64,000 nt of DNA, taken from the NCBI GenBank assembly GCA_048940925.1, contig JBHLOC010000019.1, positions 21,977-85,976 on the forward strand. The letters are read 5' to 3'. The position numbers were made by a program, and so were the translations under genes. Positions 5,668 through 29,910 of the stretch are shown here, piece after piece. Under the pieces are notes generated by a model that saw only the letters and a program-made list of their open reading frames with translations, made no database searches and had not been told where the DNA came from. The DNA is from Promethearchaeota archaeon (GTDB lineage Archaea > Asgardarchaeota > Lokiarchaeia > Sigyniarchaeales > SOKP01). Every line of letters begins with the position of its first letter. Position 1 is the stretch's first letter.

Positions 5668-6852
5668 CTAAGAAACATACCTATTTAATAGTAATAGTTC
5701 TATTTCTGCTATGAGATCTTCAGGCATCTGTGTTAAATAACCTTGGGAAGATTTAGGGCTTCCACCACCCTTCCCACCAAATTTGTTTATTAATTTTTGT
5801 AGAAGGTCATTCGAATTTATTATTTCATTTAAAGAAAGTATTCTTATTTTATTATTTTCAAATTTGAAAATCAGAAGTGAATTTAAAGGAAAATTATCTA
5901 ATGATTTGTTTATAGTCTTAATATCGACTTCAAAATTGATTAGAAAGAGTGGAATTTCATTAATTAATTTTAAAGGAGATTTAGAAATCAATTCTAATAG
6001 CTTAAAAGATAATTCATTGTTTTGATTTTGAATTTTTTTTATTAATCCTAACCGTTTTTTAAGTAATTCTTTCAGTTTTATTATAGAAGAGTTGATATCA
6101 TTAGCCAGATCAATTAGATCTATATTTAAATTTGTACTCATTTCTAAAGCTTTATTACCTACGACGTATTTAATCTCTTTTCCCTTTTTAAATTCATAGA
6201 TTAATAACGCGCCAATTTCTGTAGTATTCTTTACATGGGTTCCTCCACAACATACTAGATCTAAATCTTGAATTTCCATTAACCGTATATTAGAATTATC
6301 AGGAATAACACTTCTTATTTTCTCAGAATTTTTTACAGCTTCTTCACGCGGAATTATTTTTGCATTCATTTTGAAATTTTGAGTAGTACAGATTTTATTA
6401 ACTTCAGTTAAAAGCTCATTCAATTGCTTATAATTTACTTTTTGAGAAAATTCAATGAAAACATCTTCAAAACTGAGATTCGCGCGTTCAGTATCGATAT
6501 CATATTTTTTTTTAATAACTGCTGAGAAAATATGTTGAGAAGTATGAGCTTTCATTATACCATAACGAAATTTCCAATCAATTTCCCCCTCAACCTGATC
6601 TCCAATATTAAAATTTTTTATACTGTTAGGTGATACTTGATGTAAAATATCTTCTCCATCCTTAACAACATGAAAAACTTCAATTTTTAGATCCTTAATG
6701 CGGAAATATCCACGATCACTTATTTGATTGCCACTTTCAGGATAAAATAAAGTTTTATCTAACACAATACCATTTTCTCTAATAACTTCAATTTTTGCTC
6801 TAAACTTGGTTTCATAAGGTGTTTTCCAATACAGTTTTTGGGTCATTTTCAA
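5668..6852 (-). CDS. alaX: Alanyl-tRNA editing protein, long AlaX type with C-Ala/DHHA1 domain
   Basis: TLFYPESGNQISDRG, Zn ligands HTSQH and CCGGTH, C-terminal GGKGGGS. Confidence 0.88.
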   Translation of the reverse strand: MKMTQKLYWKTPYETKFRAKIEVIRENGIVLDKTLFYPESGNQISDRGYFRIKDLKIEVFHVVKDGEDILHQVSPNSIKNFNIGDQVEGEIDWKFRYGIMKAHTSQHIFSAVIKKKYDIDTERANLSFEDVFIEFSQKVNYKQLNELLTEVNKICTTQNFKMNAKIIPREEAVKNSEKIRSVIPDNSNIRLMEIQDLDLVCCGGTHVKNTTEIGALLIYEFKKGKEIKYVVGNKALEMSTNLNIDLIDLANDINSSIIKLKELLKKRLGLIKKIQNQNNELSFKLLELISKSPLKLINEIPLFLINFEVDIKTINKSLDNFPLNSLLIFKFENNKIRILSLNEIINSNDLLQKLINKFGGKGGGSPKSSQGYLTQMPEDLIAEIELLLLNRYVS

Positions 6853-13877: not shown

Positions 13878-14804
13878 GTGGAACTTCAAGAATCTAAAAG
13901 CCAAAAAGAAAATAATTCCAATGATATTATTAAAGAAGAAATTAAATTGCAGCTACACTTATGGTTACCCGCGTTCTTTATTATCTATTTTTGCTCCTTT
14001 TTAATACCAGCCGGAATTTTTATGATATTCATTATGTTGTTTTATTTACCAAATTTCTTAGAGATAAGAAATTTTATTTCTCTTTTGACTAATTTACCTT
14101 CACTTATTGCAGCTTTGACGCTACCTATTGTAATAATAATGTGCTATTTAATACACTTATTTATCGTAGCGTTAATTACTCGGTGGTTTTGGAGATATTC
14201 AGAAAAAAAATCTCCTTCCAAATCGGGTATTATTCCTAGAAACATTCCTAGTAAAACCTTAAATTTTTACCATTTTCGTTCATTTATAATAAAATATCCC
14301 AAAAATGCTTTTTCAAGAGGTCCTTTCCCTTGGCTCCTAAAGTGGATGTATAATTTTGTTGGTTCTAACAAGATTGGGAAAGGTTCTGTCATTGAAGAGC
14401 AACTCGCAGGTGATAGGTTTGTAGAAATAGGTGAAAATTCATATATAGGGATTAATGCAGGTGTTAGTTCACATGCTGTTGAAGGGATATTTGGAAATAT
14501 TTCATTTGCAAAGATAAAAATCAGAAATAATTTTACTGCAGCGGCATTTAATTGTATTGCCCCAGGAGTTGATACCGGAGATAATTCATGGTGGTTACCA
14601 ATGACAGGAGCAACAAAATACAATATTCTAAAAGGGGACAATTTTTATTTTGGTACACCTCTGAGGAAAATTTTTAAAAGAAAAGTTATGGATTATCTAC
14701 AAATAACAGAGGACGATTTAAAAAGAGCGGAAAATCTAAATAAAAAGCTAAGTATATCAGGACAGATAAAAAATAAAACGGAGAATAATAACTCTAATGA
14801 GTGA
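13878..14804 (+). CDS. 2-TM plus left-handed beta-helix acyltransferase-like protein, subunit A (cluster 1)
   Basis: Two TM helices, then hexapeptide repeats (KIGKGSVIEE, EIGENSYIG, SSHAVEG, YFGTP). Confidence 0.8.
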   Translation: MELQESKSQKENNSNDIIKEEIKLQLHLWLPAFFIIYFCSFLIPAGIFMIFIMLFYLPNFLEIRNFISLLTNLPSLIAALTLPIVIIMCYLIHLFIVALITRWFWRYSEKKSPSKSGIIPRNIPSKTLNFYHFRSFIIKYPKNAFSRGPFPWLLKWMYNFVGSNKIGKGSVIEEQLAGDRFVEIGENSYIGINAGVSSHAVEGIFGNISFAKIKIRNNFTAAAFNCIAPGVDTGDNSWWLPMTGATKYNILKGDNFYFGTPLRKIFKRKVMDYLQITEDDLKRAENLNKKLSISGQIKNKTENNNSNE

Positions 14805-15693
14805 AAGTCAAGCTTCTGAATCAAAAAGAGTCAAAGTTGGAAAAGTGGATTATACTATTGATTTTGTAACAAGTAGTGCTATTAGCAGAATTAGCCTTAA
14901 GTTTCTTATTCTTTATATACCAATTCTCTGGATTTCAGGATATATGTCTGTAGCCGTTTTTTTCGACATTTCTAGATTAATTAATAATTGGATAATTACA
15001 ATGTTTCTATTACCTGTATGGTTATTCATCCTTTATTTTATTTTTATTTTCGGTGTAGCTATTTTTACAAAAGCATTCCTTCTAATAATTAACATGATTC
15101 ATAGACCAAAGGAAGGAATATTTAAAGCAGAAGAAGGCGATAAAGATTATGAATTTTGGAGATTGAGAGTAGAATTGAAGAAATTGGTATTCTGGTTGAT
15201 GAATAATGGACCATTATCATGGGTTATAATGTGGGGTTTTCGATGGATGGGTATTCACGTAGATTTCTCTAGTCATATGCAAGATGCTTGGTCAGATGGC
15301 GGATTTATTGAATTTGGTCGAAATATAACAGTTGGACAAGGCGCTGTAGTAATGAGTTCAATGGTTGTAGGGAAATATTTAATAATTAAAAAAGTCATTT
15401 TTGGAGATTATACAGTTGTTGGTGGTGTTTCAAATATTTCTCCAGGTACTATATTGGGTAACGAATCGGTAATTGGTGCGTTTTCTACTACAATTCCAAA
15501 TCAACTTATTGAAGCGGGTTGGATTTATTTAGGCCAATTCGCGAGGAAACTTAAACGAAATAAATATGCTCAGCAAAGAAGAGATTTAATTTATGAAAAG
15601 GTTGTAGATGAAGAAATAAAGTATGAAGTTCAACGAGAGGTTAATATTGATGAAGATAAAAAAGCATTGCTAAATAATAATAAGGAGGGATAA
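14797..15693 (+). CDS. 2-TM plus left-handed beta-helix acyltransferase-like protein, subunit B (cluster 1)
   Basis: Two TM helices, HRPKEG, EFGRNITVGQGAVV, IFGDYTVVG; overlaps subunit A by ATGAGTGA. Confidence 0.8.
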   Translation: MSESQASESKRVKVGKVDYTIDFVTSSAISRISLKFLILYIPILWISGYMSVAVFFDISRLINNWIITMFLLPVWLFILYFIFIFGVAIFTKAFLLIINMIHRPKEGIFKAEEGDKDYEFWRLRVELKKLVFWLMNNGPLSWVIMWGFRWMGIHVDFSSHMQDAWSDGGFIEFGRNITVGQGAVVMSSMVVGKYLIIKKVIFGDYTVVGGVSNISPGTILGNESVIGAFSTTIPNQLIEAGWIYLGQFARKLKRNKYAQQRRDLIYEKVVDEEIKYEVQREVNIDEDKKALLNNNKEG

Positions 15694-15699
15694 AGAAGC

Positions 15700-16548
15700 A
15701 TGTCAGTACCCTCAAGTTTAAAGGTTGGTCCAAACACTACTCTCACCCTAGTCAAGATGAGGTATTTAACTTTTTATATATTTCTAATTTGGATTTCCAT
15801 TTTTACAATCCAATTTGAATTTTGGGTATTTTGGGGACTTTATGAGTCGAAATTTATCCAGTTCTTGTTTTTTCTCCCACTTTTAATTTTTATTATGTAT
15901 TTAACATCGATATTAATATCTTTAATCTTTGCTAAAATATTTCTCATTCTAGTAAATTTAATTCATAAGCCACGTGAGGGAGTTTTTCTTAGACATTCTT
16001 CTGATAAAGATTATAAATATTGGAGTTTAAGGAGTGTTATTAAGAAATGGCCATTATGGTTGTCACATAAATTTCCTTTTCCCTTTATGGATAATATTTG
16101 TTTAAAAATGTTTGGTATAAAAACAAAATTTGCAAATTCTCTTTTTGAAGGATTTATTGATACTGAATTTATAGAGTTTGGTGAAAATGTGATTGTTGGG
16201 CAAAGTGCGATTGTTCAATCAGCGGTCATAGTTGGAAATCTCTTTATTATTAGAAAGACTATTATTGAGGACAACGCTGTAATTGGTGCTCATAGTATTG
16301 TAATGCCGGGATCTCATATTAAGAAAAACTCAATTCTAGCTGGAAGCTCTCTGACTACAGTTGGCCAAGAGCTAGAAGAAAATTGGGTGTATTTAGGTGC
16401 TCCTGCTAAAAAATATAAACCTAATGTGTTTTTTGAAGATAATCTAGAAGATATAATTAGCAAGCAAGGAGAAATGGAAAAAATCTTAGAAAGCGTCTAT
16501 GAAGATTTATATACAATCCGAAAGGATAAACATAAAAAAGTTGAATAA
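15700..16548 (+). CDS. 2-TM plus left-handed beta-helix acyltransferase-like protein, subunit C (cluster 1)
   Basis: Two TM helices, HKPREG, EFGENVIVGQSAIV, IEDNAVIGAHSIVMPG, YLGAPAK; GGAGG RBS. Confidence 0.8.
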   Translation: MSVPSSLKVGPNTTLTLVKMRYLTFYIFLIWISIFTIQFEFWVFWGLYESKFIQFLFFLPLLIFIMYLTSILISLIFAKIFLILVNLIHKPREGVFLRHSSDKDYKYWSLRSVIKKWPLWLSHKFPFPFMDNICLKMFGIKTKFANSLFEGFIDTEFIEFGENVIVGQSAIVQSAVIVGNLFIIRKTIIEDNAVIGAHSIVMPGSHIKKNSILAGSSLTTVGQELEENWVYLGAPAKKYKPNVFFEDNLEDIISKQGEMEKILESVYEDLYTIRKDKHKKVE

Positions 16549-16600
16549 AAAAAAATCCCTCATCCTATTATTTAAAAAATTAAATAAATGCTGATTAAAT

Positions 16601-17389
16601 ATGAAAGTTGGTTATATTCAAACCTCTCCAATTTTTGGGGAGAAGGAGCAAAATTTAGAAGAAATTGAAAAATTAACAAATAATTTGAAAGCAGATCTAA
16701 TCGTTTTACCTGAGTTATTCGCAACAGGATACACATTTACTTCAAAGAAAGAAGCTAAATCTTTAGCAGAAGGGTTTAAAGAAGAAACAGCTCGATTTAT
16801 GATTAATTTATCAGAAAAAACTAATTCCATAATTGTTGGAGGATTTATTGAAGCTGAAAATAATAATATCTTCAATTCCTCTATGATAGTGTCCAATTCA
16901 AAAGTATTGGGAACATACCGTAAAATTCATTTATATTATAAGGAGAAACTATGGTTTTCTCCTGGAAATCGACCTCCTCAAATATTTAGCATTAATGGTG
17001 TCAATATCGGGATAATGATTTGTTTTGATTGGATCTTTCCAGAAACAGCTCGGACTCTCGCTCTTTTGGGTGCAGATATAATAGCTCATCCCGCTAATCT
17101 AGTTCTTCCTTATTGTCAGAAGGCAATGGTTACACGATGTCTTGAAAATCGAATCTTTGCTGTAACTTCAAATAGATTTGGTGAAGAAAACAGAGGATCT
17201 GATAACTTTAAATTTACAGGTCAAAGTCAAATAACTTCTTACAACGGGGAAATTTTATCTTTGGCTCCTAAAGATAAAATATATGTAGATATAATAGATG
17301 TTGATATCAATAAAGCAAGGAATAAAAAATTAAACGAATATAATGATATAATAGATGATAGAAGAGAAGACTTTTACTATAAAAAGTAA
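16601..17389 (+). CDS. Carbon-nitrogen hydrolase (nitrilase/amidase family)
   Basis: Catalytic triad motifs LPEL, YRKIHL, ICFDWIFPE. Confidence 0.92.
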   Translation: MKVGYIQTSPIFGEKEQNLEEIEKLTNNLKADLIVLPELFATGYTFTSKKEAKSLAEGFKEETARFMINLSEKTNSIIVGGFIEAENNNIFNSSMIVSNSKVLGTYRKIHLYYKEKLWFSPGNRPPQIFSINGVNIGIMICFDWIFPETARTLALLGADIIAHPANLVLPYCQKAMVTRCLENRIFAVTSNRFGEENRGSDNFKFTGQSQITSYNGEILSLAPKDKIYVDIIDVDINKARNKKLNEYNDIIDDRREDFYYKK

Positions 17390-17416
17390 AAAAAAAAAAA
17401 ATAAAATATTAAAATA

Positions 17417-18223
17417 TTAAGGCTGTAAAATACCTCCAAAAGCTAGCCATGCCAACAACGATTTAGCTACTAAACTTAATATTATATAAACACGTTCACC
17501 AAAAAGATAATCTTTCCAAGGACCGACTCCTTTATATTGAAGCACCATGTTAATTGCAAAAGTATTAAATAAAATTAAATAGGTATAAAATATCCAATAG
17601 ACAAAGTCAGGTATGCCCTCAGCATCTACTCCATAAAAGTAGCCAAAAATTACAATCCATGGAATTGCTCCAGATATACATCCCATTATAAAAGGCTTCC
17701 AGTTTGTTTTTTCAGTGTATTGATTAACTAATTCCATTACATAACCAAACATTATCATCGTTGCATTTAATACAAAGATCATAACCAAAGACCATACATC
17801 CCATACACCAAAAAGCAGTGAAATGAATACGATCATCACCGAGCTAGAGAAAGCATATTCATACCAACGGTATGGGTTGAATCCTTTCTTTAAATTTTCA
17901 TTATATCTTTTATTAAGCGGATATGCAATTAAAAGATGGGCTAATGCTGACATTAATAGAAAAGACGCTAATATAGCTCCAACATATGAAATTGTAAATA
18001 TGGCCTCAGGATTGGGATAAATGTTAAAGGTATCTGGAGAAATTACCTCATAAGTCAAATAAAAGGTATAAATATCTCTAGAGAAATCTAAGATTAGACC
18101 TACAGTTAACATTAGTATACCTTGTATCAAATGGAGGATTCCCATGTTTCTATTAAATTTCTTCAAATAATCGAATGATATATCTGAATTGGCAATAATT
18201 TCTTGTCGTTCTTTATAATTCAT
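17417..18223 (-). CDS. heR: Heliorhodopsin
   Basis: Seven TM; HLIQG in TM1, SALAH in TM2, NPYRWYEYAFSSSVM in TM3, ERVYIILSLVAKSLLAW with the retinal-binding Lys in TM7. Confidence 0.95.
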   Translation of the reverse strand: MNYKERQEIIANSDISFDYLKKFNRNMGILHLIQGILMLTVGLILDFSRDIYTFYLTYEVISPDTFNIYPNPEAIFTISYVGAILASFLLMSALAHLLIAYPLNKRYNENLKKGFNPYRWYEYAFSSSVMIVFISLLFGVWDVWSLVMIFVLNATMIMFGYVMELVNQYTEKTNWKPFIMGCISGAIPWIVIFGYFYGVDAEGIPDFVYWIFYTYLILFNTFAINMVLQYKGVGPWKDYLFGERVYIILSLVAKSLLAWLAFGGILQP

Positions 18224-18530
18224 TTTAATTGTTTTTTTGTGTAAATTTTATAATATCATTTAACCCAAAAATAAACTTAAATTGTTTCTATATTAATTAT
18301 TAAAATTTCATAAGAAGTAATTTTAGAATAATTGGAAAATTCTTTAATTTTTAATATTTTATTAACGATGATAAATGTGAAATTCAATATTATTGAGTTT
18401 TAATCGAGAGATGTTTACTGCCAAATTTTTATTTGAAATTGTTTTAAGTATTAATTTTAATTTAGAATAAAAAAAAATAATTAAATCAAAACAATAAAAT
18501 AAGTTTCTTTTTTTAGTTGAATTTCGGGAT

Positions 18531-19073
18531 TTAATTATGTTCTACAATACCATAAAGACCTGTCAGAGGATCTTGAAACATAGGTAAATGTGGTGGTAAA
18601 TAAGTAAATAACATAAAAATTAAACCTAAAGTTATAAAAATAATCCATGAGAAAATTATTATTAATTTTGGTACCTTGGATATAGTTAAAATTTTATAAC
18701 TTATTAATTGGCCAACTGCAACTCCAACAATAAAGGAAGAAATATCAATTATTAAGATTTCTGTTTTAAGAATTGCTGTATATGTATAAAATGTAATAAT
18801 TATAATAACTATGCTTATCAACGCAGCTAACGTTTTTCCAACAATAAAGTTGTTTGTTCCTTCTTTTATATATTGATATTCAATTAATGAAAAGATTATA
18901 AGTGGCCAATATGGTAATTTCAAGTGTTCCCAAACACTCTCATTAACAGGAAAAAATCCTCCGATATATTCCCAGTGTCCTAACCATTCAAAAACAAAGT
19001 GAAATAGAGCCCCTACAAGGCTTATAAAAATAATACCACCAATTTCCCATTTTAGTATCGAATTTTTTAACAT
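18531..19073 (-). CDS. DUF6512-like membrane protein
   Basis: LFHF..EW, VNESVWEHLKL, TYLPPHLPMFQDP motifs; five TM. Confidence 0.7.
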   Translation of the reverse strand: MLKNSILKWEIGGIIFISLVGALFHFVFEWLGHWEYIGGFFPVNESVWEHLKLPYWPLIIFSLIEYQYIKEGTNNFIVGKTLAALISIVIIIITFYTYTAILKTEILIIDISSFIVGVAVGQLISYKILTISKVPKLIIIFSWIIFITLGLIFMLFTYLPPHLPMFQDPLTGLYGIVEHN

Positions 19074-19506
19074 AGTTATATTAACACATTGTAATTTAAT
19101 TGGATTTTTATTAAATTAATATGAATTTCAAATACTATATTTTTAATTAAATATGTTTAGGAATAATTAAAATAACTTAGGTTTATTGAATATAAATCAA
19201 ATTTGCTTTGACTTTTTTTATACCATAAATTTTTAATTTTTTTTTATAATTTAGAGTATTTTTTAAATAACTTCTAAATCCTTAAAAAAAACAGAAATTT
19301 TGAACAAGTAAAGAAATTCATCTTTAAAATAAAAATAGTTAAAAATATAAACTTGAATATAACAAAACAATAAGAAAGTTTTTAAAATTTTTTGAATTCG
19401 ACTCCAGCTATTAATTCTAAGAAAGGTTAAAAATATAAAGTAATTTATAATAATACTTTTTAACGACTTTAAAGTTAAATAAAAATATTAAAGTTGTGTC
19501 TAAAAG

Positions 19507-20877
19507 ATGAAAATCAATTCAACTAATTTAATAGGTTTATTAATAATACTGATCTTAGGAGTTTTGGTTGGGATCCCAACATTCAAAGTAGACAATTCAT
19601 TTAAAAGTTTCAATAAAATAAATCCAAAATTATCAGAACCAAATGAACTATTTAGTCTTGCGTTTTCAGACGGCAGCGAAGTAGATCTAAAGTTATGGGC
19701 TCGAAAGACACGTCCTTTACCAGTGGAAGAATGCCTTGTTGATATTACTCAGATTAGCCCTACACAATATCGTTATAATTTTGAAGATATGCCGGATAAT
19801 CCTGATGATTTTAATGATGTTGTAGTAATCCTTTCTATTATATCTAATAATTCTAATTCTCCTCAAATTAAAATCGAGATCCAATCAAGTTCAACTGCAA
19901 GAGACGATGATTTATTATTAACTTTTAATACTACTTTTGGAATTGATATTATTTATACTGATACATTAACTGGAAAGGGTTATTTAAAAGTATCCACTCA
20001 ACCTTGGTTGATATATCAAGAAGTTGAAGAGAAAGTTGGAAATAATATACTTATTTCGTTGAAGAAATCAAATCCGGGATTTAGTCTTGCATTTTCAGAC
20101 GGCAGCGAAGTAGATCTAAAGTTATGGGCTCGAAAGACACGTCCTTTACCAGTGGAAGAATGCCTTGTTGATATTACTCAGATTAGCCCTACACAATATC
20201 GTTATAATTTTGAAGATATGCCGGATAATCCTGATGATTTTAATGATGTTGTAGTAATCCTTTCTATTATATCTAATAATTCTAATTCTCCTCAAATTAA
20301 AATCGAGATCCAATCAAGTTCAACTGCAAGAGACGATGATTTATTATTAAATTTCTCGACAATTTACGACGTCAATGTGGAATACGTAGATAGTTTTTCT
20401 GGAATAGGTAATTTTAAAATTGAAAATGAATCTTGGTTGATATATCAAGAAGTTGAAGAGAAAGTTGGAAATAATATACTTGTTTCATTACAAAAACCAG
20501 AAATGGTTCCTAATATTACTATTAATACACCTTATAAATATGAAATATTTGGGATTAATGCTCCAAAATATAATATATCAATTGCAGGTTTATATGATAC
20601 TCTCTGGTACACAATTGACGAGGGAATTACCAATTTAACTATAAATCTGTTGACAGGAACAATTGATCAGACTGAATGGGAAAAACTCATGGATGGTATT
20701 GTAAATATAACATTCTATGCAAATAACTCTGAAGGTTTTACTGCGAATGCAAAAGTTATGGTAATTAAACATGTAATGGCGAAGGAGCCACCTGCAATCC
20801 CAGGATATAATTTAATTATATTTATTGGAATATTATCTTTAATAACGTTCCTTATTATAAAGAAAAAAACTACTTAA
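19507..20877 (+). CDS. Cell-surface protein: N-terminal signal/TM, two tandem Ca-binding lectin-like (DUF4114/LecB-like) domains, Ig-like domain, Loki-CTERM-like anchor
   Basis: FEDMPDNPDDFNDVVV twice; PNITINTP...LWYTID Ig-like unit; C-terminal PAIPGYN + TM + KKK. Confidence 0.8.
   Translation: MKINSTNLIGLLIILILGVLVGIPTFKVDNSFKSFNKINPKLSEPNELFSLAFSDGSEVDLKLWARKTRPLPVEECLVDITQISPTQYRYNFEDMPDNPDDFNDVVVILSIISNNSNSPQIKIEIQSSSTARDDDLLLTFNTTFGIDIIYTDTLTGKGYLKVSTQPWLIYQEVEEKVGNNILISLKKSNPGFSLAFSDGSEVDLKLWARKTRPLPVEECLVDITQISPTQYRYNFEDMPDNPDDFNDVVVILSIISNNSNSPQIKIEIQSSSTARDDDLLLNFSTIYDVNVEYVDSFSGIGNFKIENESWLIYQEVEEKVGNNILVSLQKPEMVPNITINTPYKYEIFGINAPKYNISIAGLYDTLWYTIDEGITNLTINLLTGTIDQTEWEKLMDGIVNITFYANNSEGFTANAKVMVIKHVMAKEPPAIPGYNLIIFIGILSLITFLIIKKKTT
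19651..20481 (+). repeat. Intragenic tandem duplication, period 429 bp (143 codons)
   Basis: 19651-19921 vs 20080-20350 identical except one synonymous base; 20003-20052 vs 20432-20481 identical; the 81 bp between these blocks are diverged. Confidence 0.95.
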
Positions 20878-21342
20878 ATTAATGTTAAAATTTATACACT
20901 GTAAAAGATTAAATTATTTCTTTTATTATCTTAATTTTTTTTTTTAATTAGGTAAAAATTTATTAAAACATTAATTTAAAGCGGAAATTCTATTAATAGT
21001 CAAATTTTTACTAAAAAATTCAAATTTAGAATGAAGAAATGAACCGATTAGAAATACAAAAATTAAACTGATTTTTACTCTTTATAAATTCTTAACTCAA
21101 AATTTCACATTTTAATCAAATTAACTAAATTTTGATAAAATTTTATTGAATTGGTATGAACTTAAAATCAGTAATATATATTTAGATAGGATATGGTATA
21201 ATTAAAATAGCTCAAGTTGTTAACTAAAACTAACAGACCCACTACAATCTCAAACACAACTCTTAATAAATTTAACTTTTAGTTTTATATAATTAAGATA
21301 TTATTGGAATAAGTTCTAAATACTTTGATATACAATAGTTAA

Positions 21343-22353
21343 ATGATGAAAGCTGCAATTTATGATGGAAAAGAATTATCCATTAATGAAATTCCTAGAC
21401 CAGAACTTTCAGCAACTCAAGTTCTTATTCAAGTTAAAGCAGTTGGGATATGTGGAACTGATTTAGCTATTATAAATGGTTCATTACCGACACCTACTCC
21501 TATTATTCTTGGTCATGAATTATCTGGGGAAATTCTAGAAATTGGAGATAAAGTTGATCCGAAATGGATTAATAAAAAAGTTACTTGCGAAATTAATAGC
21601 AATATTGATTTTGATTGTTATTATTGCAAGCAGAAGCAATATTCACAATGCATTTCTCGAAAAGCATTAGGAATAGATATTGATGGAGCACTTGCTGAAT
21701 ATATCGCTGTAGAATCTTATCTACTGCACGAAATCGCTGAAAATATTTCATTTGAAGAAGCTACTTTTATCGAACCTTTAGCTGCTGCATATCAAATATT
21801 CGAGATGATGCCACTGGATGAGAATGATAAAATAATAGCAATCTATGGACTTGGTAAATTGGGGATGCTTATAACACAAGTTGCGTTAAAAAAAGGACTA
21901 AAATTGATTGTTGTTGATGGATCTCATGAAAAAATTAATTTAGCAAAAAATTTTGGTGCTCAATTTCAAATAAACAGATTTGATGGTATTAATGTCCCTG
22001 ATTCAATAAAAACTTATACTAATGGTTTAGGAGCTGATATTGTTATCGATGCGACTGGTAACCCTTTAGCTTTAAAGGATGTGATAGCTTCATGTAGAAC
22101 AAGAGGCAAAATCCATGTAAAAAGTACACATGGCGTTGACACACCCATAAATTTAACTGATCTAGTTGTTCGCGAATTGACTCTTTATACAAGTCGTTGT
22201 GGACCATTTAAAAAAGCTATCGAGGGATTAAAATCAGGAGACATAAAAGTTGATAAATTAATTACTAAAAAATTTGACTTAAAAGACATTGAAAAAGCTG
22301 TAAATTTTCATATGAAAAACCCAGAACATATTAAAGCTATTATTCGAATATAA
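21343..22353 (+). CDS. Zinc-dependent alcohol/polyol dehydrogenase (MDR family)
   Basis: GICGTD, ILGHE, structural Zn region CYYC...C, EPLAAA, GLGKLG Rossmann motif. Confidence 0.9.
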   Translation: MMKAAIYDGKELSINEIPRPELSATQVLIQVKAVGICGTDLAIINGSLPTPTPIILGHELSGEILEIGDKVDPKWINKKVTCEINSNIDFDCYYCKQKQYSQCISRKALGIDIDGALAEYIAVESYLLHEIAENISFEEATFIEPLAAAYQIFEMMPLDENDKIIAIYGLGKLGMLITQVALKKGLKLIVVDGSHEKINLAKNFGAQFQINRFDGINVPDSIKTYTNGLGADIVIDATGNPLALKDVIASCRTRGKIHVKSTHGVDTPINLTDLVVRELTLYTSRCGPFKKAIEGLKSGDIKVDKLITKKFDLKDIEKAVNFHMKNPEHIKAIIRI

Positions 22354-22386
22354 ATCATATATTGAGTATTTATAGATAAGATTAAA

Positions 22387-24183
22387 TTGCAATCAAGTGA
22401 AAATATTTCAGAAGAAGAAGTTATAAAAGAAGAAATTAAATTTCAATATTTTTGGTATTTGTTTGTGTTTTTTTCAATATATTTAATTTCATTAATCATC
22501 CCTGCTATTTTATTTATAGCTTATATCTTTTTGTTCTTTTTACCCTATTTTTTAGAAATTTCAAATTTTTTTGCAATTTTTACCGAATTTAAATCCCTTA
22601 TAGCATTAATTTCCATGCCCATTGTTATTATTGGTTGTTACCTTATCCGATTATTTTTCGTAGGCTTAATTACGCGTGGTTTTTGGAGTCTTAGTGAAAA
22701 AAAATCACCAAGTAAAAATGGTATCATACCACGAAACATCCCAAGTAAAACATTGAATTATTATCACATAAGAAGCTTTATGATCAAATATGGAAAAAAC
22801 TCTTTTACAAAAGGAGCTTTTCCTTGGCTCTCTAATTGGTTTTTTAACTTTGTAGGGTCAAGTAAGATTGGAAAGGGAACAACATTAGAAGAAAGTATAG
22901 TGAATGATAAATTCATAAATGTAGGTAAAAACTGTTATTTTGGAGTAAATTCTGCCTTAGCAAGCCATATGGTTGATGGAACCTTTGGAAACATTAATTA
23001 TTTCAAGATAAACATAGGAAATAATGTTACAAGTGCAGGATTAAACCTAATTGCAGCAGGATCTGAGGTACGTGATAATTCATATTTACTTCCACTAGCT
23101 TCAACTGCAAAACATAGTATACTTAAAGGAGGTAATTACTATTGGGGATTACCATTAAGAAAAATATTTAGAAGAAAAATCTTGAAATTTCTTGACTTAA
23201 CTCCTAAGAATTTAGAGATAAATGAAAATATTGAGGGATATAAAGATAAACATTTATTAAAAGAGTTAAAAACTAAGAAAATTTTAGCCCAATCTATTAA
23301 AAAGTTAGGAAATAACCAATTTCAAAATAATCTTCATGAGGAAAAAATCGATTTGAATAATTTAACAGAAAAAGATTTAGCAATTGATTTCACAACAAGT
23401 AGCGCAATTGCGAGAATAAACATAAAATTCTTAGCAGTTTATATTCCAATTTTCTGGTTATCTGGCATGATAATCACCATTATTTTTTATACCTTTACGT
23501 ACTATGTCCAGAATATGGTTTTAATGGCTTTTTTACTTCCAGCAATGTTAATATTCATGTGGTTTATTTTTATATTAGGTTGTTTTTTCTTTAGTAAACT
23601 GTTTTTAATTCTAATTAATTTAATTCATAAACCAAAAGAAGGTATATTTAAAGCAGAGATTGGAGATACTGATTTTGAGTTTTGGTGCTTAAGAACTGAA
23701 TTAAAAAAAATTGTCTTATGGCTTATAAGAAATTGGCCTCTTCCTTGGATGGATATATTGGCTTTCAAATGGTTTGGAGTAAAGATGACTTTATCAAGTT
23801 CTTTATATGATTCTTGGTGTGATGGAGAATTTATTACCTTTGGTAGACGGGTACTTTTAGGTCAAGGTGCTACTATCATGTCGAGTATGGTAGTTGGTCG
23901 ATATTTATTCATAAAGAATGTAATATGCGGTGATTATTCACTTATCGGCGGACACACCACTATCGCACCAGGAACAGTAATTGGGGAAGATACTTTTGTC
24001 AGTGCTATTTCGAATACATTATATAATCAAATTCTTGAACCTGGATGGATCTATATGGGAATACCAGTCGTTAAACTTAAAGAAAATAAATATGCTAAAG
24101 AAAGAAGAGATATAATAATGAAAAGAGATGTAGATAAAGAGCAAAAGTTCGAAGTTGAACATGAAGTAAACATTGATAAATAA
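22387..24183 (+). CDS. Fused A+B membrane LbH acyltransferase-like protein (cluster 2; no C gene follows)
   Basis: N half matches 13878..14804 (GIIPRNIPSKTLN, ASHMVDG); C half matches 14797..15693 (IDFTTSSAI, HKPKEG); ends VNIDK*, slightly short of paralogs. Confidence 0.82.
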   Translation: MQSSENISEEEVIKEEIKFQYFWYLFVFFSIYLISLIIPAILFIAYIFLFFLPYFLEISNFFAIFTEFKSLIALISMPIVIIGCYLIRLFFVGLITRGFWSLSEKKSPSKNGIIPRNIPSKTLNYYHIRSFMIKYGKNSFTKGAFPWLSNWFFNFVGSSKIGKGTTLEESIVNDKFINVGKNCYFGVNSALASHMVDGTFGNINYFKINIGNNVTSAGLNLIAAGSEVRDNSYLLPLASTAKHSILKGGNYYWGLPLRKIFRRKILKFLDLTPKNLEINENIEGYKDKHLLKELKTKKILAQSIKKLGNNQFQNNLHEEKIDLNNLTEKDLAIDFTTSSAIARINIKFLAVYIPIFWLSGMIITIIFYTFTYYVQNMVLMAFLLPAMLIFMWFIFILGCFFFSKLFLILINLIHKPKEGIFKAEIGDTDFEFWCLRTELKKIVLWLIRNWPLPWMDILAFKWFGVKMTLSSSLYDSWCDGEFITFGRRVLLGQGATIMSSMVVGRYLFIKNVICGDYSLIGGHTTIAPGTVIGEDTFVSAISNTLYNQILEPGWIYMGIPVVKLKENKYAKERRDIIMKRDVDKEQKFEVEHEVNIDK

Positions 24184-24213
24184 TAAATAGATTGGTTAAA
24201 ATCCTATCACATT

Positions 24214-24609
24214 TCATTTTATGGTCAAGTGTAATTCTATTTTTAAGAAATTTTTTAACCTTTTACAATTTTTTTTAAATTCTTGCTTATCCTGATAAAA
24301 GAGATTAAGTCTAGGACAATCTTTATCAAAAGTACAAATATTCTGGGTGACATCATAGATTAAAGGATAAAATTTACACCCTTGGGGTCGATATTCATAA
24401 ATCATACACTTTTTAGAAAAAAAGTCTAAAAACACGCAGTGATTTGCAGAATTTTTTAACTGTAAAAATCCTTTTTTGTTTTTAAAGAGAAAATCCTTTC
24501 TTTTTATTTTCTTAGGAAAGTTTTTGATTATTAGATCAACATCTTGTTGAGATAATATCATTTCTGTCCTAATACAACATTCTCCACAATTCGCACATTT
24601 GTTGACCAT
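24214..24609 (-). CDS. YkgJ/UPF0153 CxxCxxCC cysteine-cluster protein
   Basis: CANCGECC...CVFL...CMIYEYRPQGCKFYP...CP. Confidence 0.88.
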   Translation of the reverse strand: MVNKCANCGECCIRTEMILSQQDVDLIIKNFPKKIKRKDFLFKNKKGFLQLKNSANHCVFLDFFSKKCMIYEYRPQGCKFYPLIYDVTQNICTFDKDCPRLNLFYQDKQEFKKNCKRLKNFLKIELHLTIK

Positions 24610-24742
24610 AGTAAATTAGTATTTTTGTTTAAATCTCATAAATTTTAAAGGAAGAAAAATATCTATTAAAGTATAATAAGCATCATTTACTTTTTAATAG
24701 GGTAAAAATTACAGAAAAGTAACGATAAAATTTCATTAAACC

Positions 24743-26623
24743 ATGAATGAGGATATAAAAGAAACTGAACTGTTAAATTTTAATGAAAATAACAATGAAA
24801 TTTTAAAAGAAGAAATTAGTCTACAATTTCATTTATATATTTTAATTTTTGCTATAATTTATTATATTTCATGGGTAATACCTGGATTTGTATTTTGGTT
24901 ATACTTTATGATACCTTTCCGTATTTACTTCTTAGAAAATCTAAATTTTGTATCAATTTTTACTAATTTTAATTCACTAATAACACTTTTAATCATGCCA
25001 ATTATCCTTATTGGTTGTTATTTACTTCATCTATTTTTAATCGGTTTAACTACTCGAATTATTTGGAAAATTACTGAAAAAATTTCGCCATCAAAATCAG
25101 GAGTAATCCCTAGAAATATAAGAAGTAGAGCAGCAAATTATTATCACATCAGGAGTTTTATGATAAAGTATGGTAAAAACACTTTTACAAAAGGTATCTT
25201 TCCTTGGCTCTCTAATTGGTTTTTTAATTTGGTAGGATCAAACAAAATCGGTAAAGGTACAACTTTAGAAGAATCTGTTGGTAATGACAAATTTATTAAT
25301 ATTGGAGAAAACTGTTATATAGGAGTAAATTCTACTTTAGCCAGTCATTTAATCCAAGGAATTTTTGGAAATATTTCTTATTTCAAAATAAATGTAGGAA
25401 ATAACGTGACTACAGCTGTAATGAACCAAATCGGTCCAGGAACAGAACTTCATGATAATTCCTTTTTATTACCGTTAGCTTCTACCAGCAAACATAGCAT
25501 AGCGAAAGGAGGTAAAAACTACTATTTTGGAATTCCTTTTAGAAAAATCTTCAGAAAAAAAATTATAAAGTATCTGGATATTACTCCAAAAGATTTAGAA
25601 ATAAATGAAAACATTGAAGGTTATAAAGACAAGGCACTTTTAAAAAAGATAAAGAAGAAAAATGATGTAAAGAAAAAAGTTGATTCTGCTCCTGAAAAAA
25701 GTTTGAGAGGTAATGAATCTAAAGTAGAAAAAGTAAATTATTCTGATTTATCAGAAGAAGATTTAACAATTGATTTTGCTACAAGCTCTGCAATAAGTAG
25801 GATTAACATAAAGTTTTTAGCAGTCTATTTACCAATTTTATGGCTAGCAGGGCTACTTGCTACTATAATTTGGTATTGGTATTCAGAAGATGTAATGAGT
25901 TCAATGAAATTTCAATGGGCATTTTTTCTTTTCTTTCCATTTATATTATTTGGTTTGATCTATATCTTTATTATTGGATGTCTTCTTTTTAGTAAATTAT
26001 TTTTAATGTTAATTAATCTTATTCATAAACCGAAAGAAGGAGTTTTTAAAGCAGAAATAGGAAATACTGATTTTGAATTTTGGATGTTAAGAACTGAGTT
26101 AAAGAAAATTGGGTTATGGTTTATGAGAAATTCTCCCTTACCTTGGACTGATGTAGTGACCTTAAAATTAATGGGCGTTAACATGGATTTCTCAAGCCAT
26201 TTACCAGACGCATGGTGTGATGCCGAATTCATCAAATTTGGACGCAAGAATCTAATTGGTCAGGGAGCTTTAATAATGTCGAGTATGGTAATTGGCCGAT
26301 ATTTAATAATAAAGCAGGTATTTTTAGATGATTATGTAATGGTTGGAGGTCACACAACTATTTCTCCAGGTACATTAATAGGTAAAGAATCTGTGATAGG
26401 TGCACTTAGTTCTACAACTCTTAATCAAGTTTTAGATCCTAAGTGGGTTTATTTTGGATTTCCAGCAATTAAGCTTAAAGAGAACAAATATGCTGAGGAG
26501 AGGAGAGATATTATATTCAAACGTGATGTAGATGAAGCGAAAAAATTTGAAACAATTCACGCAGTTAATATTGATGAAGATAAAAAAAGATTAATTAAAA
26601 TAGAAAATGAGGAGGAAAAATAA
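24743..26623 (+). CDS. Fused A+B membrane LbH acyltransferase-like protein (cluster 3)
   Basis: Collinear with 22387..24183 (ASHLIQG, LEINENIEGYKDK, IDFATSSAI). Confidence 0.82.
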   Translation: MNEDIKETELLNFNENNNEILKEEISLQFHLYILIFAIIYYISWVIPGFVFWLYFMIPFRIYFLENLNFVSIFTNFNSLITLLIMPIILIGCYLLHLFLIGLTTRIIWKITEKISPSKSGVIPRNIRSRAANYYHIRSFMIKYGKNTFTKGIFPWLSNWFFNLVGSNKIGKGTTLEESVGNDKFINIGENCYIGVNSTLASHLIQGIFGNISYFKINVGNNVTTAVMNQIGPGTELHDNSFLLPLASTSKHSIAKGGKNYYFGIPFRKIFRKKIIKYLDITPKDLEINENIEGYKDKALLKKIKKKNDVKKKVDSAPEKSLRGNESKVEKVNYSDLSEEDLTIDFATSSAISRINIKFLAVYLPILWLAGLLATIIWYWYSEDVMSSMKFQWAFFLFFPFILFGLIYIFIIGCLLFSKLFLMLINLIHKPKEGVFKAEIGNTDFEFWMLRTELKKIGLWFMRNSPLPWTDVVTLKLMGVNMDFSSHLPDAWCDAEFIKFGRKNLIGQGALIMSSMVIGRYLIIKQVFLDDYVMVGGHTTISPGTLIGKESVIGALSSTTLNQVLDPKWVYFGFPAIKLKENKYAEERRDIIFKRDVDEAKKFETIHAVNIDEDKKRLIKIENEEEK

Positions 26624-27570
26624 TGTCAGTTCCTAATACTATGCGTGTAGGACCTTTTTGTCCTACTGTTCTTGTAAAAAAGCGCTATTTAATATTCTAT
26701 TTTTTTCTTATATGGATAAGTATAATTCCGTTACTTTTGGAATTTTGGGTTTATTGGAGGTTATTATGGAATTATGAGAGACCAATTCATTTTTATACCT
26801 TTCTTCCACTTCTTTTCTTTGGTATGTATGTATCCATCGTCTTCTTTTCTATATTTTTTGCAAAAATCTTATTAATTATAGTTAATGCATTCCATAAACC
26901 TCGAGAAGGTATATTTTTACGGCTTCCAGAAGATAAGGATTATAGGTATTGGAGTCTTCGTAGTACGATTAAAAGATGGCCAGTATGGCTTGCACATAAA
27001 TTTCCTTTTCCTTTCTTAGATAATATTTGCTTTAAGGCTTTTGGTGTGAAAACGAAATTTTCAAACTCACTCTTTGAAGGATGGGTGGATACTGAATTTA
27101 TAGAATTTGGTAAGGATGTTGTAATCGGTCAAGGTGCTATTGTCCAATCTGCAGTAATAATTGGAAATTTACTGATAATTAGAAAAACAGTTATAGAAGA
27201 TAGTGTGAGAATAGGTTCTCATGCAATAGTTATGCCAGGAACTCATATAGGTAAGAATTCAATACTAGCGGCAAATTCAGTAACTACTGTAGGGCAAACT
27301 TTAGAAAGAATGTGGGTATATGTTGGTATTCCAGCAAAAAAATTTAAAAAAAATTATTTTTTTGAAGATGGATTGGAGGATAAGATAGGGCAGGTTGAAG
27401 ATGTTGAAGCTTTAAGAAAAAAATATGAAGAAATCTATACAAAGCGTTATGATGAGTTGACTCTTAAAGAACGTAGAGAACTTAAAAAAGAAAAGAAAGA
27501 AAAAGAAAAGAAGAGATTTGATGCTGAAACAGAGGAATGGGAAGAATTTGATGATGGTTTTAATATATAA
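26623..27570 (+). CDS. Subunit C membrane LbH acyltransferase-like protein (cluster 3)
   Basis: TAATG coupling to upstream gene; collinear with 15700..16548 (MSVP, DYRYWSLRS, HKFPFPF.DNIC, SLFEG..DTEFIEFG). Confidence 0.82.
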   Translation: MSVPNTMRVGPFCPTVLVKKRYLIFYFFLIWISIIPLLLEFWVYWRLLWNYERPIHFYTFLPLLFFGMYVSIVFFSIFFAKILLIIVNAFHKPREGIFLRLPEDKDYRYWSLRSTIKRWPVWLAHKFPFPFLDNICFKAFGVKTKFSNSLFEGWVDTEFIEFGKDVVIGQGAIVQSAVIIGNLLIIRKTVIEDSVRIGSHAIVMPGTHIGKNSILAANSVTTVGQTLERMWVYVGIPAKKFKKNYFFEDGLEDKIGQVEDVEALRKKYEEIYTKRYDELTLKERRELKKEKKEKEKKRFDAETEEWEEFDDGFNI

Positions 27571-27602: not shown

Positions 27603-28316
27603 TCAATTTTCTTTTAAGATAAAATAAATTCTTCTATTATTCTTTCCTTTATTTACTGTCTTAATAAGTTCTATTTTACCGATTTCTTTAAGGTGGTTAA
27701 TGTGAGTACCCCCATCAACTTGTTCATCGATATCTCCAATTCTCACAATACGGAATTCTTTAATATTTTCAGGTAATCCTATTGCTAAGCGAGCTAATTC
27801 AGGTTTCCCTAACACTTCTTCTCTTGACATATAATCTATTGTAATTGGTAAATCTTGTTCAATAATATTGTTTGCTTCATCTATAAAAGCACTTAATTTT
27901 TCAGGAGAATAATCCTGCATTGAGAAATCCATTCTAGTTTTATCAAGGTCTATTTGATTCCCAGTAATTTTTGCATTGGCTCTTCTATAAAGAATATTTG
28001 AAATAAGATGGGAAGCTGTATGATATCGCATGTATGTATATCTTCTTTCCCAATCAAGTTCACAAGATACTTTATCTCCTTCTTTTAATCCAGGTTTATC
28101 AACTTCATGGCTAATATCCCCTGAGAATTTTCCAACATATACAACTTTGTATTTTTCATTACCCTTGAAAAGATACCCCTCATCCCATGGTTGACCTCCT
28201 CCTTTCGGATAAAAAGCAGTGTTATCAAGTGTGATATATTTTCCATCTTTAACACTCTTAACTTTAGCATCAAATTTTTTAAGATATGAATCATCCATAT
28301 ATAATGCTCTTACCAT
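27603..28316 (-). CDS. alaXM: Alanyl-tRNA editing protein AlaX-M
   Basis: TAFYPKGGGQP.D.G, MRYHTASH, VDGGTH, NKGKNNRR; 237 aa. Confidence 0.9.
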   Translation of the reverse strand: MVRALYMDDSYLKKFDAKVKSVKDGKYITLDNTAFYPKGGGQPWDEGYLFKGNEKYKVVYVGKFSGDISHEVDKPGLKEGDKVSCELDWERRYTYMRYHTASHLISNILYRRANAKITGNQIDLDKTRMDFSMQDYSPEKLSAFIDEANNIIEQDLPITIDYMSREEVLGKPELARLAIGLPENIKEFRIVRIGDIDEQVDGGTHINHLKEIGKIELIKTVNKGKNNRRIYFILKEN

Positions 28317-28863: not shown

Positions 28864-29910
28864 GTGAATTCTATGAAATCTGTGGAAGTAGCGGGAGTTG
28901 AATATGAAATTCAAAATGGGTTTCTCGATTTAGGTTTATTAGGTATAAAAAATATTACTGAAATAATAGGTTTATCAAAGCTTAAAGGTCTCAAAAACTT
29001 AGAACTCAGTTCAAATGACATAACCTATATCAACGGGTTAGAGGATCTTACAGAATTAGAAATCCTCAATCTAGGTAGTAATAACATAATTGAAATAAAG
29101 GGATTTGATTCTTTAGTTAATCTAAAAATTTTACATTTAATAACCAATCAAATAAAAGACATTAAAGGATTAGAAAACTTAATTAACTTAAAAGAATTGT
29201 ATCTTAGGGGAAATCAAATAAAAGAAATAAGAGGATTGGAAAATCTTAATTCTCTTGAACGATTAGATTTATCTTGGAATGAAATTTCAGAAATTAAGGG
29301 ACTTGAAAGCCTAGTAAATCTTAAAGTTCTATGGATCGCAAGTAATCAAGTACTTAATATAAATAATTTGGAACACTTGGAAAAATTAGAAGTATTAAAT
29401 CTTGCTGGAAATCAAATTTCTAAATTAGAAGGGTTAGAAAATCTAAAAAATTTAAAGAGTCTTTATCTAAATAATAATTCAATTCAAGAAGTAGAAGGTT
29501 TAGATTCTTTAAATAATTTAGAAACATTATGGTTGAATACAAATCACCTATCGGATATTAAAGGATTAGAGAATTGTATAAAATTGAAAATTTTAAATTT
29601 AAAACAAAACAACATAAAACATATTAAAGGATTATATCCACTGACAGAATTAGAAAATCTATTTCTTTCTGAAAATAATATCGGTGAGATAAAAGGTCTT
29701 GAAACTTTAACAAAATTAGAAACACTTGATTTAAATCAAAACCGTATTATACAGATAAAGGGTTTAGAATCTTTACTAAACTTAAAAGATTTATGGCTTA
29801 AGGATAATTTAATTCCAGAAAAGATTTTAGACCAGTTGGGAGGATTAGATTCAGGGGGATGTGCGATTGATCCCCTTAAATTTGTCCAATATTGTCTTGT
29901 AAATCTATAA
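28864..29910 (+). CDS. Leucine-rich repeat protein, SDS22-like 22-residue repeats
   Basis: About 13 units of LxxLxLxxNxIxxIxGLExLxN. Confidence 0.93.
   Translation: MNSMKSVEVAGVEYEIQNGFLDLGLLGIKNITEIIGLSKLKGLKNLELSSNDITYINGLEDLTELEILNLGSNNIIEIKGFDSLVNLKILHLITNQIKDIKGLENLINLKELYLRGNQIKEIRGLENLNSLERLDLSWNEISEIKGLESLVNLKVLWIASNQVLNINNLEHLEKLEVLNLAGNQISKLEGLENLKNLKSLYLNNNSIQEVEGLDSLNNLETLWLNTNHLSDIKGLENCIKLKILNLKQNNIKHIKGLYPLTELENLFLSENNIGEIKGLETLTKLETLDLNQNRIIQIKGLESLLNLKDLWLKDNLIPEKILDQLGGLDSGGCAIDPLKFVQYCLVNL

Follow-up and report, generated by a model that had tools for sequence, protein, structure and literature searches.

Split membrane left-handed beta-helix modules in a Promethearchaeota genome: carrier-less homologues of the Pls/PosA terminal region and a candidate three-part acyl-transfer enzyme

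No structure has been solved for the polymerising end of Pls and PosA, the synthetases of epsilon-poly-L-lysine and delta-poly-L-ornithine, and its mechanism is poorly understood. A stretch of archaeal DNA now raises the question of what machinery of this kind might do when it stands on its own. The stretch (hereafter the window) comprises 64,000 nucleotides (nt) of a Promethearchaeota archaeon (Asgard archaea, Lokiarchaeia; GCA_048940925.1, contig JBHLOC010000019.1, positions 21,977 to 85,976 of the forward strand). Six of its genes, all on the + strand and numbered g1 to g6 here, encode eight units of two transmembrane (TM) helices followed by a left-handed beta-helix (LbH), and these units fall into three types, A, B and C. 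We think it probable that A, B and C assemble as a carrier-free, three-part membrane acyl-transfer enzyme with a single active site; the 1:1:1 composition of this assembly, the His as base, the coenzyme A (CoA) donor, the membrane-side acceptor and all other functional statements are parts that we infer. Judged from sequence, what would be new is the membrane LbH machine as a free-standing, split three-subunit enzyme that works without a carrier protein, and we found no published description of split or carrier-less forms in the literature on TIGR02353, Pls structure or membrane-anchored hexapeptide acyltransferases.

Three unit types in a recurrent gene order

All six open reading frames (ORFs) were found at exactly the coordinates given by an initial annotation made from the DNA letters, whose description of six genes, eight units and three types in the order A-B-C agrees with the ORFs, the TM profiles and BLASTP. 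The first cluster consists of three single-unit genes: g1 (13878..14804), a type A unit of 308 amino acids (aa) with two TM helices and a degenerate LbH bearing a conserved Ser-His (H199); g2 (14797..15693), a type B unit of 298 aa; and g3 (15700..16548), a type C unit of 282 aa. The second is the single gene g4 (22387..24183), an A-B fusion of 598 aa without a C unit of its own, orthologues of which are intact in genomes of the same genus and the same family. The third pairs another A-B fusion, g5 (24743..26623; 626 aa), with the type C unit g6 (26623..27570; 315 aa). With a slash marking a gene boundary, the layouts are A/B/C, AB and AB/C, which keep the order A-B-C throughout and bring the tally to three A, three B and two C units. 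Within the first and third clusters the reading frames are closely packed: g2 shares 8 nt with the end of g1 (ATGAGTGA), g3 begins 6 nt after g2 with GGAGG upstream, and g6 overlaps g5 in a TAATG, all of which suggests translational coupling at the g1/g2, g2/g3 and g5/g6 junctions.

In every unit a pair of strongly hydrophobic helices (Kyte-Doolittle 19-residue mean >2) precedes a hexapeptide region; the Pfam Hexapep cut-off is passed by g3, g5 and g6, whereas g1, g2 and g4 score under it. BLASTP identity is 52-67% within type A (g1 and the N-terminal halves of g4 and g5), 51-60% within type B (g2 and the C-terminal halves of g4 and g5) and 64% within type C (g3 and g6), as against about 35% between B and C and 21-26% between A and either of the others. 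Type B and C units share a signature directly after TM2, H-K-P-x-E-G-I/V-F (15100-15123 in g2, 15964-15987 in g3, 23626-23649 in the B half of g4, 26024-26047 in the B half of g5 and 26893..26916 in g6), which corresponds to a short beta-strand between TM2 and two helices. The N-terminus contains 3-6 Lys plus Arg residues and the stretch after TM2 contains 4-6, but the TM1-TM2 loop just 1, a distribution that by the positive-inside rule predicts an N-in TM hairpin with the LbH on the cytoplasmic side.

The same arrangement occurs elsewhere. In the genome itself, contig C55 bears a C-A fusion and a B gene, C19 a set of two genes and C27 a single A-like gene, and in 20 loci fetched from relatives the A-B-C order is kept almost always (A/B/C, AB/C, AB, CA/B or A/A/B/C), with nearly equal numbers of the three units (37 A, 36 B and 33 C). 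Because it recurs both in these loci and on C55, C19 and C27, the arrangement of units is far beyond chance. When 150 genomes sampled from the phylum were searched, strong matches turned up in 25/25 genomes of the source organism's family and in 2/2 of the sister family, with 2-14 unit matches per positive genome, and outside these two families just generic LbH-level matches appeared (E about 1e-13). Among 680 homologues of g6, the best 120 come from Asgard/Promethearchaeota metagenome-assembled genomes (MAGs) or metagenome contigs and bear only generic annotation, the family presently being labelled merely as "DapH/DapD/GlmU-related". The modules would define a multi-copy, order-wide family of Asgard membrane enzymes, whose substrate may bear on membrane or envelope chemistry.

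Two variants were observed in passing. In two loci, L047 (G113:C24) and L060 (G071:C4), two adjacent type A genes precede B and C, which suggests exchangeable catalytic subunits. The module on C19 (L010:8036-11247) has two genes, with the His on a B-like unit and a C-like unit after it; a 533-aa calcineurin-like phosphoesterase follows, and a Gtr1/RagA-type GTPase lies 600 nt beyond.

Homology to the Pls/PosA terminal region

The likeness to Pls and PosA noted in the initial annotation proved to reflect real homology. TIGR02353, the NCBIfam model of the terminal domain of these nonribosomal peptide synthetases (NRPSs), is the best or second-best NCBIfam match for five of the six window proteins (g1 has no match) and spans the TM part in g4 and g6. 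Scores are 23.6-47.4 bits against a curated cut-off of 423.1 bits, whereas true members reach 642 bits (P0255, which has an adenylation domain) and 471 bits (P0215). In a reciprocal test, a profile of nine B and C units was searched against 1.84 billion representatives and reached true Pls/PosA NRPSs with E values of 1e-25 to 1e-31 over profile positions 22-261, that is TM2, linker and LbH. The same profile matched bacterial proteins that carry three units in a single chain without a carrier domain, two of them from Planctomycetales and Omnitrophota MAGs and two from Elusimicrobiota (P0185, P0181, P0204 and P0207), as well as one carrier-less triple-unit form fused to an SDR domain (P0190); the bacterial carrier-less triples score 157-184 bits on TIGR02353. 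It also matched many single-unit proteins of 220-240 aa and, from Asgard archaea, P0121 (797 aa) and P0123, in which three units are naturally fused into one chain. Common to all groups is P-x-x-E-G-x-[F/Y/H] directly after TM2. Judged by these matches, the Asgard units and the Pls/PosA terminal region are true homologues, related beyond generic LbH similarity. Although homologous, the modules lie, on the same evidence, outside the Pls/PosA (TIGR02353) family proper, and we do not file them as members because their model scores fall short, adenylation and thiolation domains are absent and the units are not joined in a single chain. A further hallmark of that family is the iterative formation of amide bonds to yield a cationic homo-poly-amino acid.

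A search for a solved structure with this triple [2 TM + LbH] architecture found none. Among solved folds, CoA-dependent LbH acetyltransferases come nearest to the AlphaFold2 models (Foldseek E 7e-6; TM-score to target 0.54-0.61; VIA Z 15-16.5).

The triplications themselves seem to have separate histories. In a tree of units, a single clade (SH-aLRT 99) unites the three units of the bacterial carrier-less proteins, Asgard A and B+C are separate branches, and the Pls units sit on long branches that are not resolved. A one-to-one mapping of A, B and C onto the C1, C2 and C3 domains of Pls was considered and dropped, every Pls unit scoring best against B or C with hidden Markov models (HMMs) of the three types. 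Because of the separate clades and the lack of a one-to-one HMM match to C1, C2 and C3, the Asgard and bacterial carrier-less triplications look independent, both ending with one His-bearing unit.

Assembly, active site and donor

Alignment to the unit profile showed that the catalytic-type LbH His is present in 25/26 non-Asgard single-unit proteins and 51/59 Asgard type A units, compared with 10/55 type B units (mostly Ser instead) and 6/77 type C units (mostly Ser, Ala or Asn). The column is that of His115 of E. coli K-12 LacA in local and global MAFFT alignments alike, the residue that serves as catalytic base in galactoside acetyltransferase. In the window proteins it is His in type A only, Ser in B and Ala in C; the codons concerned are those of H199 in g1 (14472..14474, motif SSHAVEG), H194 in g4 (22966-22968) and H202 in g5 (25346-25348). 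The bacterial carrier-less triples have this His in unit 2 only ("LLPHA") and the Pls/PosA NRPSs in unit 3 only ("THLFED"; 4/5 aligned, the fifth aligning poorly). The invariant Glu of the post-TM2 motif is kept in B and C and lost in most type A units. Since only type A keeps the His of LbH acyltransferases, one active site per complex is to be expected, in which the type A His would act as general base, with B and C as diverged partner or scaffold subunits. A single His-bearing unit across the Asgard modules, the bacterial carrier-less triples and four of five Pls/PosA proteins gives a testable one-active-site model for Pls, and a split form with separately expressible subunits may be easier to handle biochemically than a 1,300-residue NRPS.

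Loss of the His from two of three units could also be taken to mean that the module is non-catalytic, a membrane scaffold or a gamma-carbonic-anhydrase-like (gamma-CA) body as in mitochondrial complex I, the gamma-CA subunits of which are the best PDB sequence matches of the single-unit relative P0222. We consider this extremely unlikely. One His aligned with the LacA base is kept per assembly in three separate lineages, which argues for catalysis; the unit alignments hold no zinc-binding His triad; and Pls and PosA, the homologues that have been characterised, are enzymes. The gamma-CA assignment as such was dropped on the single conserved LbH His, confined to type A, and the missing triad.

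Natural fusions bear on whether the three types belong to one body. The first, second and third units of P0121 and P0123 fall in the C, A and B clades of the unit tree (SH-aLRT 96-99), so that both proteins are C-A-B chains, a cyclic permutation of A-B-C. In the AlphaFold2 model of P0121 the whole chain forms one body predicted with confidence (mean pLDDT 87, pTM 0.87). Along each unit, TM1 and TM2 lead into a short strand formed by the E-G-I-F motif, and a pair of helices and the LbH follow; the units of a published PosA AlphaFold model (PMC10522769) have their elements in this order. The A-B fusion g5 gave a mean pLDDT of 78.8 and a pTM of 0.74. The conserved gene order, the one-body C-A-B fusions and the restriction of the catalytic-type His to type A together strongly indicate a hetero-oligomer of A, B and C. 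As we picture it, the three types would be diverged paralogues of one unit, in which an N-in TM hairpin is followed by a short beta-strand, a helix pair and a cytoplasmic LbH, and one copy of each would form a 6-TM pseudo-heterotrimer, built like the C1-C2-C3 polymerisation domain of Pls/PosA but spread over two or three translationally coupled genes.

A different possibility is that the types never co-assemble and form separate homotrimers, whether enzymes or binding proteins, linked only by their operon. In favour are the homotrimeric build of classical LbH enzymes, the existence of single-unit relatives, nearly all of which carry the His, and the occurrence of A genes in duplicate and of an A-B gene with no C partner. 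We nevertheless hold this to be very unlikely: B and C are without the His, the A-B, C-A and C-A-B fusions join different types in one chain in a fixed cyclic order, the triple and double fusions are modelled with the pTM values just given, and the overlapping or Shine-Dalgarno-coupled junctions suggest equal dosing. The initial annotation had assigned a 6-TM heterotrimer to each cluster; gene order, the C-A-B fusions and the type A His speak for such a complex, and the assignment fails for the middle cluster, which has A and B only and could not supply a complete trimer alone. Of the three outcomes that the annotation had named as contrary to its reading, namely no match to Pls C domains, no predicted heterotrimer or unlinked A, B and C genes in relatives, none was obtained; on the second, the models of single-chain fusions are what bears.

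In Pls the donor is tethered to a carrier, and here the evidence points elsewhere. The absence of adenylation and carrier genes reported for the window extends to its whole contig, where no AMP-binding or phosphopantetheine-binding (PP-binding) gene was found, and no adenylation or thiolation domain lies near any cluster. The genome's only PP-binding and phosphopantetheinyl transferase (PPTase) domains are inside one 3,503-aa megasynthase resembling fatty acid and polyketide synthases on contig C46 (C46:17991-28541, - strand; L064:3989-14500), with NMO/ER, KS and AT domains, three PP-binding stretches, and KR, DH and PPTase domains, a native GC content of 29.7%, and flanking genes for an acetyl-CoA carboxylase carboxyltransferase and a biotin carboxylase. 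Megasynthases of this type are patchy among Asgard families (1/25 other genomes of the source organism's family, 2/2 in the sister family, 12/13 and 4/4 in two others), and its acyl carrier protein domain was ruled out as donor, this distribution not tracking the LbH family. PP-binding domains were found in 4/40 sister genomes and in 0/4 genomes of the same genus (94-99% complete). Because they are so rare and none is near a cluster, a carrier-tethered donor as in Pls is effectively excluded as a general mechanism, and with it the trans-encoded carrier that the initial annotation had considered. The simplest alternative is then a free thioester, most likely an acyl-CoA, which would fit the CoA-dependent acetyltransferases found as nearest solved folds. 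The acyl group would pass from this thioester to a nucleophile on an acceptor at the cytoplasmic membrane face, the acceptor being held at the membrane by the helical base.

Several observations weigh against the carrier-free three-part enzyme. Type A, its presumed catalytic subunit, is strongly diverged, with a Hexapep score of just 14.9 bits and no significant sequence match in the PDB. No CoA-binding residues were identified. We infer, rather than observe, the three-fold packing of the LbH domains and the placement of the His at an interface. As an A-B gene, g4 stands alone without a C unit, and some clusters, that on C19 included, have two A units or just two unit types, so that the stoichiometry of the complex may vary. 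Nor, finally, do the neighbouring genes point consistently to a pathway outside one family.

Neighbouring genes, acceptor and known systems

The first cluster is followed after 52 nt by a carbon-nitrogen hydrolase gene (16601..17389, + strand; archaeal nitrilase-like, below cut-off), which is preceded by an A/T-rich region of its own. Between the first and second clusters lie a heliorhodopsin gene (17417-18223, - strand; PF18761, E 1e-95), an adjoining DUF6512 gene (18531-19073) and the gene of a 456-aa protein with a weak DUF4114 match only (19507-20877, + strand). A Zn-dependent medium-chain dehydrogenase of polyol/threonine dehydrogenase-like type (Zn-ADH; 21343..22353, + strand) ends 33 nt upstream of g4, and a CxxCxxCC protein (PF03692; 24214..24609, - strand) is encoded between g4 and g5. 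Beyond g6 are an AlaXM-like alanyl-tRNA editing paralogue (27603-28316, - strand; 298.6 bits versus a 300-bit cut-off) and a 348-aa leucine-rich-repeat (LRR) protein (28864-29910, + strand; LRR_4, E 2e-50), and a longer AlaX-type paralogue with a DHHA1 domain lies at 5668-6852 (- strand).

The neighbours that recur most often are CxxCxxCC (10 loci), Zn-ADH (9), DUF6512 (8), RNR (6) and the carbon-nitrogen hydrolase (5), with LRR relatives near the LbH clusters in 4 loci and AlaX in 3 loci, on the opposite strand. They are confined to close relatives and were not found in loci of a more distant genus (L051, L052 and L055), and the neighbourhood survey returned no universal partner of the kind that the initial annotation had suggested seeking across Lokiarchaeia (AMP-ligase, acyl carrier protein, nitrilase or AlaX). 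Zn-ADH, CxxCxxCC and carbon-nitrogen hydrolase are at most putative functional partners of the LbH genes, and since the neighbours recur among close relatives only we treat the module as self-contained.

The bacterial carrier-less triples, in three loci from a four-sequence alignment, adjoin GT1 glycosyltransferase, GMC oxidoreductase and SDR genes or carry the SDR fusion. A FemAB-like GNAT gene, of a family that uses aminoacyl-tRNA, was also seen upstream of a carrier-less triple-unit gene in an Omnitrophota MAG (L063:1626-2780). The GT1, GMC and SDR genes beside the bacterial relatives and the polyol/threonine-dehydrogenase-like Zn-ADH ahead of the Asgard AB/C set hint weakly that the acceptor may be a small molecule, a sugar or the head group of a lipid, bearing a hydroxyl or an amine, and not a poly-amino acid.

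The same neighbourhoods bear on a further alternative, in which the complex would be a carrier-independent polymerase that forms amide bonds iteratively, from an aminoacyl-CoA, aminoacyl-tRNA or acyl-adenylate donor, to make a poly-amino acid or polyamide that is perhaps exported. The only characterised members of the homologous architecture are polymerases (PMC10522769, PMC4668381), the FemAB-like gene adjoins one Omnitrophota relative, AlaXM and the carbon-nitrogen hydrolase are near the window clusters, and the genome has 27 stand-alone AMP-binding ligase genes. Against this, no adenylation or thiolation domain is linked to any cluster and most genomes with the family lack PP-binding; AlaX and the carbon-nitrogen hydrolase accompany the clusters in only the 3 and 5 loci counted above, AlaX in the opposite orientation; none of the AMP-ligases is linked to a cluster or reaches the cut-off for amino-acid adenylation; and the glycosyltransferase, GMC oxidoreductase and SDR context of the bacterial relatives points to small-molecule, sugar or lipid chemistry. 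We therefore judge a polymerase unlikely, and the aminoacyl-tRNA donor or polymerase of the initial annotation gained no support from the few, oppositely oriented AlaX genes.

Returning to the acyl-transfer enzyme, a bolder and in our opinion improbable extension would be that one Asgard order possesses a set of carrier-independent polymerases or lipid/envelope-modifying enzymes, each of the 4-5 paralogous sets per genome making or decorating a different membrane-associated product, such as a polyamide for secretion or a lipid with an acylated head group. If true, the layout of three units with one active site would be a general principle of the whole Pls superfamily, reached from homotrimers at least twice.

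Among known systems, the gamma-CA-like LbH subunits of complex I form an LbH heterotrimer that is attached to the membrane and some of whose sites are not intact. They provide the best PDB matches of the single-unit relative, but the Asgard units have no zinc-ligand His triad and a different membrane attachment, and the two are related at the level of the LbH superfamily only. Soluble LbH acetyltransferases (LacA, Maa, and the serine, PglD and PerB types) have the LbH fold in common with the Asgard units, together with a His in the LacA His115 column, but are soluble homotrimers with three active sites, whereas the Asgard units are membrane-anchored, of three kinds and with one His per assembly. 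Closer are the bacterial carrier-less triples, which likewise combine three [2 TM + LbH] units without adenylation or thiolation domains, one of them His-bearing, and show the same post-TM2 signature; they differ in being one chain, in units that stem from a separate triplication, and in their GT1, GMC and SDR neighbours. The terminal domain of Pls/PosA (TM1-6, C1-C2-C3) resembles the Asgard modules in the layout of its units, the P-x-x-E-G-x-[F/Y/H] strand and an assembly of three units of which only one keeps the His. It is, however, a single chain, where the window has one or two units per gene, and is joined to adenylation and thiolation domains, which the Asgard modules lack in cis and, in most genomes, anywhere; its His is in unit 3, whereas that of the Asgard modules is in type A, the middle unit of the C-A-B fusions.

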